Assembly: GCF_041248615.1 (NCBI RefSeq)
Contig: NZ_CP158426.1
Length of the DNA stretch: 64,000 nt
Strand: one strand, 5' to 3'
Origin: Escherichia coli
Lineage (GTDB): Bacteria; Pseudomonadota; Gammaproteobacteria; Enterobacterales; Enterobacteriaceae
Shown here: positions 52,541-58,054 of the stretch, one piece after another
Numbering within the stretch: position 1 is the stretch's first letter
Layout: every line of letters begins with the position of its first letter
Translations under genes and position numbers: made by a program
The notes under the pieces: model-generated
Databases searched by the model: none
What the model saw: the letters and a program-made list of their open reading frames with translations, nothing else
Told to the model about the DNA's origin: nothing

Positions 52541-52758
52541 GGAAAAGCCGAGGGGCGTCAACCGAAAAATGACCAATGATGGTGAGGAAAAATCAGGGAA
52601 GTTGAAAAAAACTCATCTTAATTAGAGGCGATAAAAGATTTCTCTATAGCGCAATCCACCTCGCACGTTTTGACTGATATTCTGACAACACAGCGACACC
52701 TGGGCTTATTCGAAAAACAACGTCCTGCCACCGGATGGTGATGCTAAGGCATCTGATT

Positions 52759-52782
52759 CGGCCTGCGCCCTCGCGTAGGCCG
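52759..52782. repeat. REP-like palindrome / terminator downstream of the nucleotidase gene
   Basis: Perfect palindrome cggcct-gcgccctcgcgt-aggccg flanked by GTAGGCCGAATA, resembling REP (GTAGGCCTGATAAG...) elements; sits near the left edge of the metF-metL insertion. Confidence 0.5.
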
Positions 52783-52841
52783 AATACTGGATCTGCAAAA
52801 TCAACTGGTAACAAACAGATGAATCAACTCAATACGTACTT

Positions 52842-54395
52842 TTACTTGATATCTTTCACGCGCATACCGTTGATCTGTTCATCCGTGATGGTGTTACCCG
52901 CTTTGAAGTAATCAACCACGGCGTGATAAACGTAATAACCGCCCGTTGTGTTACGCGCTTTCCCTTCGGTAAAGGCGGTAAAACCATCTCCACCATCAGC
53001 AAGGAAACTCTGAGTAGCAATGTGGTAAATCGTCGCATCTTCAATGGGTTTGCCATTCAGAGTCAGCGTGATTACCCGCTGACCAACCGGCTTACTGCTG
53101 TCGTACTTCATTTCCAGGCCTTTCGATACCTGTAAAACGCCATTACTTAAACTTGCGCCGTGTTCCATCAAACTGCGTAATTGTTTACCCGTGAGATCCA
53201 TCGTCACCAGTTCGTTGGGAAACGGGAAGGTACTGATGACGCCGCCCATCGTAATCGCCCCTGCGGGGATCTCATTGCGAATGCCGCCAGAGTTGGTTAA
53301 CGCCAATTGGGTGTTTTTACCCGCCGCTACCAGTAAAGCATCAGCCGCCAGGTTCCCGAGGGAAGCCGATTCACCATAGGCACGTTTTAATTCAACCGGC
53401 GATTTCGCGACCGTTTGTTGCACCACTTCATCAAGCTTTTTATTCCAGCCGTCGATCACCTGTTTTGTTTGCGGATCGGGCTTCCACTCGTCGGCGTAAA
53501 TGGTTTTAAGCTCGAAGTTTTTCACCGTAAAATCATGCGGCTTCTCTTTGTAGTCGAGAACCAGTTTGCCCACATCAATCCCGCCGCTGTCAGTGGAGAG
53601 GATGAGCGTATTGCCGACTTTAATCGGTTCCGGCGTACCCACATGCGCATGTCCGGTGATCAAAATATCCAGCCCTTTCACCTGACTTGCCGTCTGAATA
53701 TCTTTATCCAGCGCGCGACGCACATCTGTGCCTCCCATACTGGACTGGCGGGCCGGAACACCTTCATGGATCAGGGCGACGGTCAAATCAACCTTGCCTT
53801 TAAGTTCATCGATATAACGTTGTAGCCATTTAATTTCATCACGCGCTTCAATCCCCACTCGCGTTGCCGCAGATACCGTGTCATTAAAGGCAAATACACC
53901 GTGCAAACCTATAACGCCTATTTTCACTCCGTCTTTTTCGATGATGGTATATGGCTTATCCCAGAATGATTTACTGCTGTTCTGATAAAAAACATTGCCC
54001 TGCACAATAGGGAATTTTGCCTGACTCAACTGTAATAATGTGTTGTCCCAGCCGTGGTCAAATTCATGGTTGCCTATCGTGACGGCATCAAACGGCATAG
54101 TATTCATAATATCGATAATAGCCTTACCTTTGGTCAGGCTGCTGATATATGGCCCGGTAAAATAATCACCCGCATCAAAAAACCATGTCGCTTTATTTTT
54201 TGCTTTTTCTTGCTTAACCAGCGTAGTGATATTTGCCCAGCCGCCAATATCCCGTTTACCATCAGCGATCCACGGCACTTTATAAGGCTCGACATGCGCA
54301 TGGAGGTCGTTGGTATAAATGATGGTGACATCTTTGGCGCAAGCCCAAAACGGCAGTGTTAATGCGATACCCGCAGCAAGTATTTTAATTTTCAT
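52842..54395 (-). CDS. secreted bifunctional metallophosphoesterase / 5'-nucleotidase-family protein (UshA/CpdB-like), accessory relative to K-12
   Basis: 517-aa product with signal peptide [20 protein letters not shown], calcineurin-like phosphoesterase motifs DLHAH, GDYFTG, GNHEFD, GHAH, and 5'-nucleotidase C-terminal-domain signature ([12 protein letters not shown]...[16 protein letters not shown]); good SD AAGGGA 8 nt upstream of ATG. Confidence 0.85.
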
Positions 54396-54454
54396 AAACA
54401 GTCCCTTTCAGTGAGATAAAGGATTGCTACATTACGTTCTGAAAGAGTTATTTA

Positions 54455-54470
54455 TGTGAGAGTAATCACA
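54455..54470. promoter_or_regulatory. consensus CRP-binding site in divergent promoter region
   Basis: Perfect TGTGA-N6-TCACA (TGTGAgagtaaTCACA), centred about 67 bp upstream of the nucleotidase ATG and about 65 bp upstream of the zinc-ribbon gene ATG. Confidence 0.6.
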
Positions 54471-54527
54471 TCCACAGGGGAGCGTTGCCGGACAAAATCA
54501 ACGACCATGTGAAATCGTTGGTGATAT

Positions 54528-55658
54528 ATGTCGACTCTGTTTACGATTAATGCCTGCAAGTCGTTTGGTTGCCGTAATTTAGGGCAGCCAACATCTAAAG
54601 ATTATAGCTGGCCCGACTATCGGCTGGGTTATCCGGCATTGCACTGTCGGGCATGTGGCAGTTACCCGCCGTTGTTTGACGAGCAACAATTTCGTGACTG
54701 GTTGTCAGTTCACTTATCTACTTTTGCAACAGAGAAAGGCCATTTTTGCCCGGTATGTTATGGCACAAAGACGATTTGTTATGGCCACAATCCACAGGGG
54801 TCGCAACGCATTCAATGTCGTAACTGCAAAAAAGTCTGGACACCTAAACAATATCAGAAAGAAATAACGCCTCCTGAAATAATCGAAACGGTTGCTCTTC
54901 TGGTGCCATTTCAGGGAGCCAGCAATGGGCAGAAACTGTATGTTTTAATCAGTTTTGATGCTCTTCGCGGTAATATTCTTCATCTTTCTACTAATTACAC
55001 GCAGCATCAGGCTGGAGAAAGTCTGCATTATCGATACAGAGGGAATGCAGAACCAGAGTTACACGAGAGTAATATTGTACAACGCGTTGATATGCGCGAA
55101 GCACAATTTCTACGCCGCAGTCAGTTTGATGAAATTCAGTATGGCAGCGCAGCGCTCAAACGCAATGCTAAAGGTGTTATTCTGCGTCCGGTTATCACTG
55201 CACACGGGCATTTCAGAGTACTGAATATTTTATTCCCTACAGTAAAAACACATGTAATTTCACACGAGTGTTTTTTAAGAGGTGCGATTATTACGGCCTG
55301 GGCAGAACTGTTTCGCCAACAGCAAGGTGAGATTTGGTTTATTGAAGAGGAAATAGCTGACTATACCGATAATACGCCCTGGCGTTTTCAGGGAAAAACT
55401 TATCACGGCTGGTGGAAAAATCAGTGGCAACTCTGGGTTCAGGGCAAAAATCGTAAAATGGTATGTGCATTAACGGGCGGAAATATCAGCAAAGCTGAAA
55501 TGCTCTCTTTAGCAACCAGCAGACATTTTATCGACTGGCTACATAAACAAGCAGTATTTACTCACAGCGCCCCGCTTTCCGCAGGGCGCGTTACGCAAAT
55601 ACTGCTTTCTCTGGCTCAGGATTACAACAACTGCGCCAGGCGGTTAATATCCGACTGA
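54528..55658 (+). CDS. hypothetical tandem zinc-ribbon protein; second ribbon resembles the IS1 InsA zinc finger
   Basis: 376-aa ORF; CxxxxC...CxxC (CKSFGCRNLG...CRACG) then CPVCYGTKTICYGHNPQGSQRIQCRNCKKVW, which aligns with IS1 InsA [32 protein letters not shown]; C-terminal about 270 aa Trp-rich with no motif I recognise; last 12 codons are antisense to the metL 3' end. Confidence 0.6.
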   Translation: MSTLFTINACKSFGCRNLGQPTSKDYSWPDYRLGYPALHCRACGSYPPLFDEQQFRDWLSVHLSTFATEKGHFCPVCYGTKTICYGHNPQGSQRIQCRNCKKVWTPKQYQKEITPPEIIETVALLVPFQGASNGQKLYVLISFDALRGNILHLSTNYTQHQAGESLHYRYRGNAEPELHESNIVQRVDMREAQFLRRSQFDEIQYGSAALKRNAKGVILRPVITAHGHFRVLNILFPTVKTHVISHECFLRGAIITAWAELFRQQQGEIWFIEEEIADYTDNTPWRFQGKTYHGWWKNQWQLWVQGKNRKMVCALTGGNISKAEMLSLATSRHFIDWLHKQAVFTHSAPLSAGRVTQILLSLAQDYNNCARRLISD

Positions 55659-58054
55659 ATCGCCCCTGCGGTGACGTCGCGCCCCGCGCCAGGCCCACGG
55701 ATCACCAGAGGGTTATCGCGATACCAGCGGCTTTCGATGGCAAAGACGTTATCGCACGGCAGCAGTGATGCCAGCGGATGGTCTTCACGCACCGCTTCCA
55801 CGCCCACACGCGCTTTGCCATTGGCATCGAAACGCGCCACGTAGCGCAGCACCAGCCCCATTTCGCGGGCCGCTTCCAGCCGTTGCACCATCTGCTCGTT
55901 AAGTTCATCGCCGTTTTCAAAGAAATGGTCGATGCTACCACCTTCGCAATGGGCAGGCACCAGCGATTCCACGCGCACCTGATCTGGTTCGATGTCGTAA
56001 CCCGCTTCACGCGCCAGAATCACCAGCTTGCGCATCACGTCTTTGCCGGAAAGGTCATCACGCGGATCAGGCTCGGTTAAGCCCTGCTGCCACGCCTGAT
56101 CCACCAGCTCGGTAAACGGCACGCTACCGTCGAATTGCAGGAACAGCCAGGAGAGCGTGCCGGAGAAGATCCCACTGATCGACAAAATAGTATCGCCGCT
56201 GTCGATCAGATCGCGCACGGTATGGTTGATCGGCAAGCCCGCACCGACGGTGGCGTTGTACAGCCAGTGACGCCCGGTTTTTTCGAAGGCGTCGTGGATC
56301 TGGCGATATTTATTGCTGTCGCTGGCTCCCGCCAGTTTGTTGGCGCTGATGACGTGGAAACCGTGGCTGGCAAAATCGAGATACTGATCAGCAAGCTGCT
56401 GGCTGGCGGTAACGTCCAACACCACTAAATCATCATACGGATGGGCGCGCATCCACAGGAACAGCGACTCTTCATCCTGCTCGACCGCTTCATCGTTGAA
56501 GAAGGCTAACGCGCGGCTGGCGTCCAGCCCGTCATAACTCAACAGGCTACGGCGGCTGTCCACCACGCCTGCCAGCACAAATTCAAAGCCGGTACGCGCC
56601 GAGAGCGTGCTCTGCTCACGGGCGAACAGTTCCAGCCAGCGGGAACCGATATTGCCCTTGCCGAACAATACCAGGCCGATGCGTTTTTCTGCGCGGAAGA
56701 CGGACTGATGCAGCCCCTGAATCAGGCTTTCGGTCGGTCCGGTGCGCAGTACTGCCACCAGGCTGATGCCGTCATCCGACTGCCAGGTAAATTCGACCGG
56801 CTGGCCTTTCAGTTGCTGCCAGAAGCGGTGGCAATGCAGCGGGTTACGGGTTACGCCCGCCCCAACCATCGCCACCAGCGCCAGCCCCTGACGCAGGCGC
56901 AGTTCGCCAGGTAATCCCGCTTCGTCGAGGATTTTCAGCGCACTGTCGGCCACTTCTGAGGTGTAGCAAAATTGCAGCAACTGGCGATCGTTATGTACGC
57001 CAACCGCCAGTGGGCGCACCTGAGCACGTTTCAGGATCTGGTCGATCTCTTTATGCGCCAGTTTGAAATCCTGGCTGGTGGGCACCTGAAACTCAATCAA
57101 GCAGACATCATCGTGGCTGGTGACAATACGCGCACCAGTACCGGAGGCCAGCACGCGTTCAATGCGCGTGGAACCTTGATCCGGCGTGTAGCTACAGCGC
57201 AGCTGCAGGTCAATTTCGCTGCCAGAAACCGGCTGTAAAGTACGGGCGTGAAGAACGGGAGCCGCCAGACGCGCCAGTTCGCTGGCCTCATCCAGACGCA
57301 GCAACGGCAGCAGGCAGGCATCTTTCACTTTACGCGGGTCGGCACTGTATACCCCGGCGACGTCGCTCCAGATGGTGACGCGAGAAACACCCGCCAGCGC
57401 ACCGATTTGTGTCGCGGAATAGTCGGAACCGTTACGCCCCAGCAGCACCGTTTCACCGGCGTTGTTACGGCTGATAAACCCGGTCACCACCAGACGTTTG
57501 CCCGGATGTTGCACCAGTAGCTGTTGCAGCAACGGGTAAGAAAGCCCTTCATCAACCTGCGGTTGCGCAGCGCGTTCAGCGCGTAAAAACTCGCGGGCAT
57601 CAAGCCAGGCCGCTGGCAGCCCTTGTTGATTAAGCACCGCAGACATCAGGCGCGCCGACCACACTTCACCGTGACCCACCACTTCCGCATACACCGCATC
57701 GTTAATACCGCTGTCGAGCAGCGCCGCCAGGCGCTCAAGATCGCTGACAAAAGCGCTAATGAGGCTATCGGCTTCTTCGGCGGGTAGCAGGCCGCTAATC
57801 AGATCGCACTGATAGCGACGCAGCGTTTGTTGAACCTGATGCGCAGAGAGACGATCGGTCTGACTTAGTTTCAACCAGTTAATCAACTGGTTAGTGGTGC
57901 TACCGGCGGCGGAAACCACCATCATATCGTCAGGCTGAGAGTACTCCGCCATAATGCCCGCGACACGCAAATAACACTTCACATCAGCCAGACTACTGCC
58001 ACCAAATTTATGCAGTTGACGACCTTTCGCCCCTGCCTGCGCAATCACACTCAT
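55622..58054 (-). CDS. metL: bifunctional aspartokinase II / homoserine dehydrogenase II
   Basis: 810-aa product MSVIAQAGAKGRQLHKFGGSSLADVKCYLRVAGIMAEYSQPDDMMVVSAAGSTTNQLINWLKLSQTDRLSAHQ... ending ...AIQSDINRLAQLL; immediately downstream of metB. Confidence 0.96.
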   Translation of the reverse strand: MSVIAQAGAKGRQLHKFGGSSLADVKCYLRVAGIMAEYSQPDDMMVVSAAGSTTNQLINWLKLSQTDRLSAHQVQQTLRRYQCDLISGLLPAEEADSLISAFVSDLERLAALLDSGINDAVYAEVVGHGEVWSARLMSAVLNQQGLPAAWLDAREFLRAERAAQPQVDEGLSYPLLQQLLVQHPGKRLVVTGFISRNNAGETVLLGRNGSDYSATQIGALAGVSRVTIWSDVAGVYSADPRKVKDACLLPLLRLDEASELARLAAPVLHARTLQPVSGSEIDLQLRCSYTPDQGSTRIERVLASGTGARIVTSHDDVCLIEFQVPTSQDFKLAHKEIDQILKRAQVRPLAVGVHNDRQLLQFCYTSEVADSALKILDEAGLPGELRLRQGLALVAMVGAGVTRNPLHCHRFWQQLKGQPVEFTWQSDDGISLVAVLRTGPTESLIQGLHQSVFRAEKRIGLVLFGKGNIGSRWLELFAREQSTLSARTGFEFVLAGVVDSRRSLLSYDGLDASRALAFFNDEAVEQDEESLFLWMRAHPYDDLVVLDVTASQQLADQYLDFASHGFHVISANKLAGASDSNKYRQIHDAFEKTGRHWLYNATVGAGLPINHTVRDLIDSGDTILSISGIFSGTLSWLFLQFDGSVPFTELVDQAWQQGLTEPDPRDDLSGKDVMRKLVILAREAGYDIEPDQVRVESLVPAHCEGGSIDHFFENGDELNEQMVQRLEAAREMGLVLRYVARFDANGKARVGVEAVREDHPLASLLPCDNVFAIESRWYRDNPLVIRGPGAGRDVTAGAIQSDINRLAQLL

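Follow-up and report, generated by a model that had tools for sequence, protein, structure and literature searches.

A predicted catalytically inactive IS1-like transposase derivative as a candidate local regulator of a divergent nucleotidase gene in Escherichia coli

The stretch of DNA analyzed here, referred to as the window, comprises 64,000 nucleotides of Escherichia coli (NCBI RefSeq assembly GCF_041248615.1, contig NZ_CP158426.1). Between metF and metL it carries an open reading frame (ORF) of 376 amino acids (aa), divergently paired with a gene for a periplasmic 5'-nucleotidase. Our analysis identifies the product of this ORF as a transposase derivative that combines two zinc ribbons with a DDE-like core lacking its catalytic acids. 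On balance, we favor the reading that this exapted transposase serves, together with CRP, as a local regulator of the nucleotidase module; its DNA binding, the operator, the part played by CRP, the effector and the direction of regulation are what we infer. The elements of the ORF are the following.

54528..55658, plus strand: ORF of 376 aa with an ATG start, predicted catalytically dead IS1-like transposase derivative
54555..54656, plus strand: zinc ribbon 1, residues 10-43, C10-x4-C15 ... C40-x2-C43
54747..54839, plus strand: zinc ribbon 2 of the IS1 InsA / IS1595 type, residues 74-104, C74-x2-C77 ... C97-x2-C100
54873..55628, plus strand: RNase H-like (DDE integrase/transposase) fold with a Trp-rich beta-sheet and a C-terminal helical bundle, from the predicted structure
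54891-54893, 55191-55193 and 55266-55268, plus strand: triad positions V122, V222 and E247, from profile-profile alignment to an outgroup

In RefSeq the ORF is annotated as a coding sequence (CDS) whose product is named either "hypothetical" or "cytoplasmic protein". The product has no signal peptide and contains 11 Trp among its 376 residues. Searches with Pfam, NCBIfam, PADLOC and PHROGs returned only zinc-finger matches below threshold. The original prediction, made from the sequence of the window, had described two four-cysteine ribbons followed by some 270 residues without a recognisable catalytic domain, and had suggested that the latter may be an unknown domain fused to a DNA-binding module. 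As far as sequence models are concerned the lack of a catalytic domain holds true, with neither a Pfam nor an NCBIfam match in the C-terminal 270 aa. By predicted structure it does not. The AlphaFold2 model of the product (predicted local distance difference test, pLDDT, 95; predicted template modeling score, pTM, 0.94) displays the core topology beta1-3, alpha, beta4, alpha, beta5, alpha, which is that of the RNase H-like/DDE fold superfamily. The supposed unknown domain is instead the transposase's own RNase H-like/DDE core with the catalytic acids lost. It is the entire transposase that was domesticated, not just its DNA-binding module.

The loss of the acids becomes apparent from more distant relatives. 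An exhaustive profile search of 1.84 billion representatives revealed only 136 relatives, of which the full-length ones measure 400-610 aa. Our family alignment (n = 57) is composed of 52 clade members and the five most distant sequences, which belong to an unnamed, "transposase-like" outgroup of proteins of about 585 aa (P0249-like) with at least 1375 members in many phyla. These outgroup proteins show full-length homology with the ORF product, possess both zinc ribbons and have the motifs R197, H228, E247-x3-R251, WWxxxW and YN in common with it. They differ in keeping an all-acidic D/E/D triad, an InsA-like helix-turn-helix (HTH) and a TPAMRLGL tail. Their acids, present in 24 of 24 sequences, are D236 in strand beta1 (SVDRQDY), position 368 just past beta4, and position 395, where the helix following beta5 begins; in terms of topology, a DDE triad is canonically found at these sites. 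By profile-profile alignment, D236, E/D368 and D/E395 correspond to V122, V222 and E247 of the ORF product. Whereas all 24 outgroup sequences keep the three acids, not one of the 52 non-outgroup members does, and the only column that is acidic in more than 90% of the family is E247. As judged from these alignments, the ORF product belongs to a clade that branched off from a probably active transposase family and is itself catalytically inactive.

A second mapping of the triad, derived from a greedy alignment that places WWxNxW against IS1 WMTDGW and SRHF against IERH, is based on a likeness to IS1 that is not significant. It assigns the triad to V122, N298 and R332, which is likewise dead, and its outgroup columns D477 and D521 are acidic in just 22 of the 24 sequences. 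Since the topology-based columns (D236, E368, D395) are acidic in all 24, we prefer the topology mapping; under either of them the E. coli protein is short of at least two catalytic acids. The former catalytic domain nevertheless contains a set of invariant residues, namely N156, Y168, R197, H228, E247, R251, W296, W300 and N367. As to the outgroup itself, many of its genes are found on contigs of about 1.9-2.0 kb, and it has neither a recorded Pfam domain nor an assigned insertion sequence (IS) family name. No terminal repeats were seen on the single outgroup contig examined. This outgroup is probably still mobile, and it may represent an undescribed IS1-related IS family.

Both ribbons are well preserved. 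Each of the eight cysteines is found without exception in 16 enterobacterial homologs, and their conservation amounts to 84-100% in the 57-member alignment, which reaches down to 19% identity; the ribbon 1 cysteines are kept in all 53-54 family members aligned across ribbon 1, and C97 and C100 occur in every one of the 57 members. The ORF with its two ribbons is thus confirmed, and the earlier reservation that unconserved cysteine pairs would speak against functional ribbons finds no support in these homologs. In the predicted structure, residues 26-40 of ribbon 1 form a beta-hairpin. This additional N-terminal ribbon has no equivalent in IS1 InsA.

The proposed resemblance of ribbon 2 to InsA is weak and below cut-off for the protein taken by itself: NCBIfam IS1_IS1595_Zn (NF050000) scores 21.3 bits against a cut-off of 28, transpos_IS1 (NF033558), with a cut-off of 100 bits, reaches 21.4 bits and covers residues 74-123 only, and Pfam Zn_ribbon_InsA gives an independent E-value of 0.11. 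No match in the ORF product was obtained for DDE_Tnp_IS1, Zn_ribbon_IS1595 or DDE_Tnp_IS1595. At the level of the family, the resemblance is significant. With hhalign, the family profile aligns to an IS1 InsA sequence entered by hand with 96.5% probability and an E-value of 9e-10 over 80 columns, spanning ribbon 2 and an HTH insert of about 55 aa. Along this line, Zn_ribbon_InsA is matched at E <= 1e-3 by 7/57 family members, and three relatives exceed the NF050000 domain cut-off (31-34 bits). Zn_ribbon_IS1595 reaches E <= 0.1 in only five of the 57 relatives, DDE_Tnp_IS1595 in none. Databases label some distant family members "IS1 family transposase".

The HTH insert is present in relatives of 40% identity or less and missing across the Enterobacteriaceae subfamily, which has also lost the C-terminal TPAxRxGL tail. 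Accordingly, the model of the ORF product shows no helix between residues 100 and 118, and the ribbon leads straight into beta1 at 118. A PDB sequence search with the family profile found only compositional C2H2 matches and weak HTH matches for the insert that is missing here.

Full-length homologs of 371-403 aa with 62-98% identity occur in Escherichia, Citrobacter, Klebsiella, Enterobacter, Kluyvera, Pluralibacter, Pseudocitrobacter and others, and the ORF is full-length and intact across about ten genera. A genome scan with a narrower family alignment yielded matches in Enterobacterales only. Among 5426 complete E. coli genomes, 1842 contain the gene; the median copy number is one and the highest is two. 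Two allele classes exist in E. coli, one about 95-100% identical (1175 genomes) and one about 78% identical (658 genomes, including an O6:K2:H1 strain). The ratio of nonsynonymous to synonymous substitution rates (dN/dS) against ten orthologs is 0.10-0.16, at dS from 0.24 to about 3. Inverted repeats flank neither the ORF nor the two-gene module. A protein that is conserved, single-copy, of low dN/dS and free of flanking inverted repeats is neither an IS copy nor a decaying remnant.

Same-genome paralogs are 71% versus 91% identical to the query. In a scan of species-representative genomes, second copies (67-71% identical) appeared in E. coli SCPM-O-B-8794 and Escherichia sp. MOD1-EC7003, where they adjoin a cluster of Tsx and multiple nucleotidase genes away from the metF-metL site. 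Partial homologs were encountered in Salmonella enterica subsp. arizonae, Kluyvera genomosp. 3 and Escherichia sp. MOD1-EC7003, with matched residues 126-368, 1 to about 310, and 1 to about 250, and several Salmonella entries of the AlphaFold DB are fragments of 200-260 aa. The partial homologs and the Salmonella fragments suggest pseudogenisation in some lineages.

The partner gene and the DNA between the two genes comprise the following features.

52842..54395, minus strand: gene of a periplasmic UshA-like 5'-nucleotidase of 517 aa with a signal peptide, divergent partner and presumed target
54396..54527, no strand assigned: shared control region of 132 bp between the divergent nucleotidase gene and the ORF
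54432..54445, no strand assigned: near-invariant block TTACGTTCTGAAAG, candidate operator, occurring once in the window
54455..54470, no strand assigned: perfect CRP-type core TGTGA-N6-TCACA, putatively bound by CRP
54498..54522, no strand assigned: imperfect inverted repeat TCAACGA-N10-TCGTTGG, candidate autoregulatory operator or element of the 5' untranslated region (UTR)

The gene order in the window is katG-metF-[nucleotidase]-[ORF]-metL-metB-metJ. In 43 of 44 fetched loci, the divergent nucleotidase (87-100% identical) lies upstream of the ORF, and the contig of the 44th stops 140 bp upstream; the nucleotidases of homologous loci match Pfam Metallophos and 5_nucleotid_C. The spacer measures 131-139 bp in nearly all loci. 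Moving from locus to locus, the pair is encountered in at least four chromosomal contexts. It resides at metF-metL in Escherichia, Citrobacter, Klebsiella, Kosakonia, Phytobacter, Kluyvera and Salmonella arizonae, and at unrelated sites in Enterobacter, Klebsiella sp., Pluralibacter, Silvania and Rahnella, where it is often followed by one to three further genes for nucleotidases and by a gene for a Tsx channel. DNA homology between contexts and genera is confined to 52858-55628, i.e., to the two coding sequences and their spacer. The ORF, the nucleotidase gene and the control region of about 133 bp are a fixed two-gene module.

The genomic surroundings of distant family members (21-40% identity) are in good agreement with this association. 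Their neighbors include another 5'-nucleotidase; deoB-like (phosphopentomutase-like), nucleoside phosphorylase and NupG-like genes; a NupC-type transporter with a phosphorylase; a porin with an AphA-like phosphatase and a class II cyclic-nucleotide phosphodiesterase; and a further phosphorylase. Relatives of 21-28% identity thereby adjoin other genes of nucleoside and nucleotide scavenging. Altogether, nucleotide or nucleoside scavenging genes are found in six of the seven informative contexts, one further contig being too short. Such a pattern is what is expected for a family of local regulators of scavenging operons. The linkage to a functionally coherent target is conserved across genomic contexts. 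The earlier suggestion that the protein regulates the neighboring nucleotidase gene fits both the very strong conservation of the gene pair and the contexts of the distant relatives.

The control region is strongly conserved and contains long invariant blocks, as seen from 35 distinct spacers aligned from several chromosomal contexts. In its middle lies the perfect CRP core, the sole match in the 64-kb window versus 0.08 expected. Its center is 67.5 nt away from the start codon of the nucleotidase gene and 65.5 nt away from that of the ORF, its right half is invariant in the 35 sequences, and CRP-like sites also occur in the control regions of distant family members. The position of this site points to two divergent class II CRP-dependent promoters. 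The putative -10 elements are TAATGT on the minus strand (54434-54429) and CAAAAT (54493-54498), the latter belonging to the invariant spacer blocks; a simple promoter scan called neither.

Given the position of the CRP site, block TTACGTTCTGAAAG would fall within the predicted -10/spacer part of the nucleotidase promoter. The CTGAAAG within this block and CTTTCAG at 54405-54411 form an inverted repeat. Next to the ORF, the 11-mer AAATCGTTGGT (54512-54522), with which the imperfect inverted repeat ends, is invariant in 35/35 sequences and located 5 nt before the start codon. At the position of this repeat, a subgroup of 40% identity carries CGACTGA/TCAGTTG, with both arms altered. We consider TCAACGA-N10-TCGTTGG the best operator candidate. 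The RNA fold of the region upstream of the ORF is not significant (-9.7 kcal/mol, z -0.9).

We also considered AAATCGTTGGT as a motif of a wider regulon and discarded it in this role. Its copies in nucleotidase CDSs encode T-N-D of the TNDLH active-site motif, so this recurrence is not evidence for a regulon, and the other exact copy in the window is inside the EF-Tu gene. Furthermore, one frame of the minus strand at 54498-54527 reads YITNDFTW, which resembles the IYTNDLHAH motif of the nucleotidase (N-terminus near 54300); ACCAACGA is the DNA common to the block upstream of the ORF and the region encoding this motif. Either the likeness is fortuitous, or it is a remnant of a duplication of the 5' end of the nucleotidase gene.

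From these observations, a mechanism can be sketched. With its zinc ribbons, the ORF product would contact conserved parts of the control region. Candidate sites are the inverted repeat that ends in AAATCGTTGGT just ahead of the ORF start codon, and block TTACGTTCTGAAAG, which would overlie the promoter of the nucleotidase gene. CRP bound at the central TGTGA-N6-TCACA and the ORF product would jointly set the expression of the nucleotidase and, in the larger versions of the module, might likewise control the downstream nucleotidase and Tsx genes. A site over the promoter or 5' UTR of the ORF would be autoregulatory. The system would respond to carbon status and probably also to a nucleoside or nucleotide signal, for which the former catalytic domain would be the sensing part. 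More tentatively, this scheme may be extended to the family as a whole. The family, with the ORF product as its founding member, would then represent an undescribed gamma-proteobacterial group of catalysis-less IS1-like DDE transposases that act as ligand-responsive transcription factors and, with CRP, switch on periplasmic scavenging genes (5'-nucleotidases, Tsx, phosphorylases, transporters), with the core as sensor and with the HTH dispensed with in the Enterobacteriaceae branch.

Several observations weigh against this interpretation. DNA binding of the ORF product is a prediction, and the Enterobacteriaceae subfamily is devoid of the HTH that aligns with the DNA-binding HTH of InsA, which makes DNA binding less assured than the original prediction assumed. 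No operator motif common to all subfamilies was found. The invariant 11-mer is part of the 5' UTR next to the Shine-Dalgarno (SD) sequence, so that action at the RNA level could be possible, and the invariant residues of the former catalytic domain could belong to a newly acquired active site instead of a sensor. When compared alone with IS1 InsB by hhalign, the C-terminal part gives no significant similarity (E 0.4-0.7). The term "IS1-like" is therefore justified for the N-terminal module only, and it is this module that would argue for descent from IS1 proper and not from a related zinc-finger DDE family. Finally, one distant subfamily (P0155, 420 aa) ends a cluster of a Tsx-like channel, a sulfatase and a radical-SAM/SPASM maturase rather than accompanying nucleoside genes.

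An arylsulfotransferase fragment is located downstream of the P0155 cluster, and in Enterobacter hormaechei an arylsulfotransferase gene follows the ORF homolog. This suggests that the family also serves sulfatase and sulfotransferase loci.

Other explanations of the locus have to be compared with regulation at the DNA level. If the ORF belonged to an ordinary or degenerate insertion sequence of the IS1/IS1595 family, mobile or recently decayed and without host function, this would account for the sub-threshold matches to IS1-family models, for the database name given to some distant members, for the DDE-like fold, and for the occurrence of the two-gene module at several chromosomal sites. It is at odds with the single copy in the 1842 genomes, with contexts that share no DNA past the two CDSs, with an acidic triad lost in all 52 clade members, and with a full-length reading frame kept intact in about ten genera under a dN/dS of 0.10-0.16 over dS values up to about 3. 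An intact IS1595-family transposase between terminal inverted repeats, the hallmark of an ordinary IS, was not seen either, as both the IS1595 match and the repeats are missing. This reading is largely refuted and we regard it as essentially excluded. What emerges, in line with the original prediction, is a domesticated IS1-type protein; it is syntenic across genera.

Given a host function, the protein might still act on RNA, with the ribbons and the RNase H-like surface binding its own or the nucleotidase 5' UTR and thereby controlling translation or stability. The loss of the HTH in the subfamily speaks for this, as do the invariant AAATCGTTGGT 5 nt from the start codon beside an SD-like GGTGA, the adjacent repeat arms that change together between subgroups and tolerate G-U-type mismatches, and the common use of zinc ribbons in RNA binding. 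However, the predicted hairpin is as weak as stated above, the left arm of the repeat varies without compensation within the main group, and ancestral InsA-type modules bind DNA; post-transcriptional control appears unlikely to us. We are slightly more skeptical of an enzyme with a re-tooled site (H228, E247, R197, R251, N156, Y168, W296, W300) that processes a nucleoside, nucleotide or nucleic acid in cytoplasmic scavenging. Conservation is indeed strongest in the former catalytic domain and not on the ribbon surfaces, and the neighbors are consistently genes of nucleoside or nucleotide metabolism. Yet besides DDE and Argonaute-type nucleases no enzyme family was matched by sequence or fold, the metal-binding triad has been lost, the ORF product carries no signal peptide whereas its partner nucleotidase is periplasmic, and a divergent layout around a conserved control region is typical of regulators. 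Local regulation of the nucleotidase module with CRP remains our preferred reading.

The downstream end of the ORF abuts the methionine genes, and the features of this region are listed below.

55622..58054, minus strand: metL, convergent with the ORF
55629..55658, plus strand: non-conserved tail of 9 aa and stop codon, antisense to the last metL codons, with pLDDT falling to 65
52611..55620, no strand assigned: segment absent from K-12, comprising the nucleotidase gene, the control region and the ORF as far as D365
55549..55607, minus strand: strong hairpin directly downstream of the metL stop codon, probable metBL terminator overprinted on coding sequence

It had been noted that the last 12 codons of the ORF are antisense to the 3' end of metL, and the convergent overlap is indeed exactly 37 bp (55622-55658). 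The idea that the ORF is thereby truncated at its 3' end does not hold. Conservation among homologs extends to Y366-N367, beyond which the tails differ, and both residues are still encoded, as TAC AAC opposite the Leu-stop of metL; only the variable 9-aa tail is derived from metL-antisense DNA. The ORF ends about 100 bp short of metL in Citrobacter and about 10 bp short of it in Klebsiella and Kosakonia. By blastn against MG1655, K-12 has 197 unrelated bp in place of 52611-55620. Homology restarts at 55621, one base ahead of the metL stop codon, and thus the last 12 ORF codons are located in DNA shared with K-12. What had been taken for an insertion junction more likely reflects a deletion in strains of the K-12 type, as six other taxa carry the pair between metF and metL. 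With the pair at this site in many genera, the K-12 state is more likely a loss than the state of the window an insertion.

The hairpin at 55549-55607 (-44.5 kcal/mol, z -5.95) is followed by GUUUAUGU and lies inside ORF codons of about 341-360. Genera in which the ORF does not abut metL encode the same protein segment without the hairpin, and K. oxytoca, where the ORF ends about 10 nt from metL, shows an intermediate one. This element is the probable terminator of metBL within a convergent coding sequence. At the other end of the module, downstream of the nucleotidase stop codon, a second hairpin with a perfect stem of 13 nt (ATTCGGCCTGCGC / GCGTAGGCCGAAT) at 52756-52785 could be the nucleotidase terminator or an element of the repetitive extragenic palindromic (REP) type.

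In strains BEN2908 and UTI89, Tsx and three UshA-like genes between metL and metF are known as GR31 (PMC12928451); in the passages of that article on the metL..metF region, the nucleotidase and Tsx genes appear and no mention of the ORF turned up.

Compared with known systems, the ORF product is closest to InsA and InsAB' of IS1. InsA is a DNA-binding transcriptional repressor. The IS1 proteins and the ORF product share the type of their N-terminal Cys4 zinc finger, behind which the more distant family members also have the same HTH. They further share a DDE/RNase H-like core downstream, which is predicted in case of the ORF product. In contrast to IS1, the ORF product is without the HTH, without the acidic triad (V122, V222) and without InsB similarity in its C-terminal domain, and its core has a large conserved insertion and a Trp-rich sheet. 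Moreover, it is encoded by a single ORF with no frameshift, has no inverted repeats, and is single-copy and syntenic.

Exaptation of transposases as regulators is a known kind of event. Transposase-derived transcription factors include the eukaryotic FHY3/FAR1 and CENP-B-type proteins and the bacterial TnpB-derived TldR. With these the ORF product would share a retained nucleic-acid-targeting module, lost catalysis and a host regulatory role; they differ in stemming from other transposase superfamilies or in being RNA-guided. Exaptation of TnpB and of Cas12f is a subject of published work. Functionally, the module resembles the control of nucleoside catabolism by CytR and CRP, which concerns the same physiological target class (tsx, nucleoside phosphorylases, transporters) and involves CRP-type promoter sites. 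NrdR demonstrates that a zinc ribbon joined to a nucleotide-sensing domain works as a repressor. Neither CytR, a member of the LacI family, nor the ATP-cone of NrdR is related to the ORF product in sequence or fold, and the resemblance is a functional one only. Our literature search, which covered the locus, CFT073-style locus tags and IS1-derived regulators, found no description of the ORF product or its family, nor of any DDE derivative of the IS1 type whose metabolic target is conserved.

For eukaryotes, there is good documentation of DDE transposases that were domesticated into regulators. For bacteria there is hardly any, and proteins labeled "transposase and inactivated derivatives" are usually written off as debris. 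The family described here offers an evolutionary series that leads from a probably active form of about 585 aa to an inactive form that bears the HTH, and from there to the inactive, HTH-less form of 376 aa. For this inactive clade the name "IS1 family transposase" is misleading. For E. coli, our findings point to a regulator, none having been found described, of a nucleotide-scavenging module that many strains possess and K-12 does not. It is carried by a third of sequenced E. coli, including lineages of extraintestinal pathogenic E. coli (ExPEC) with an enlarged island of Tsx and nucleotidase genes, and it would have a defined and testable target in the 133-bp control region and one nucleotidase gene.

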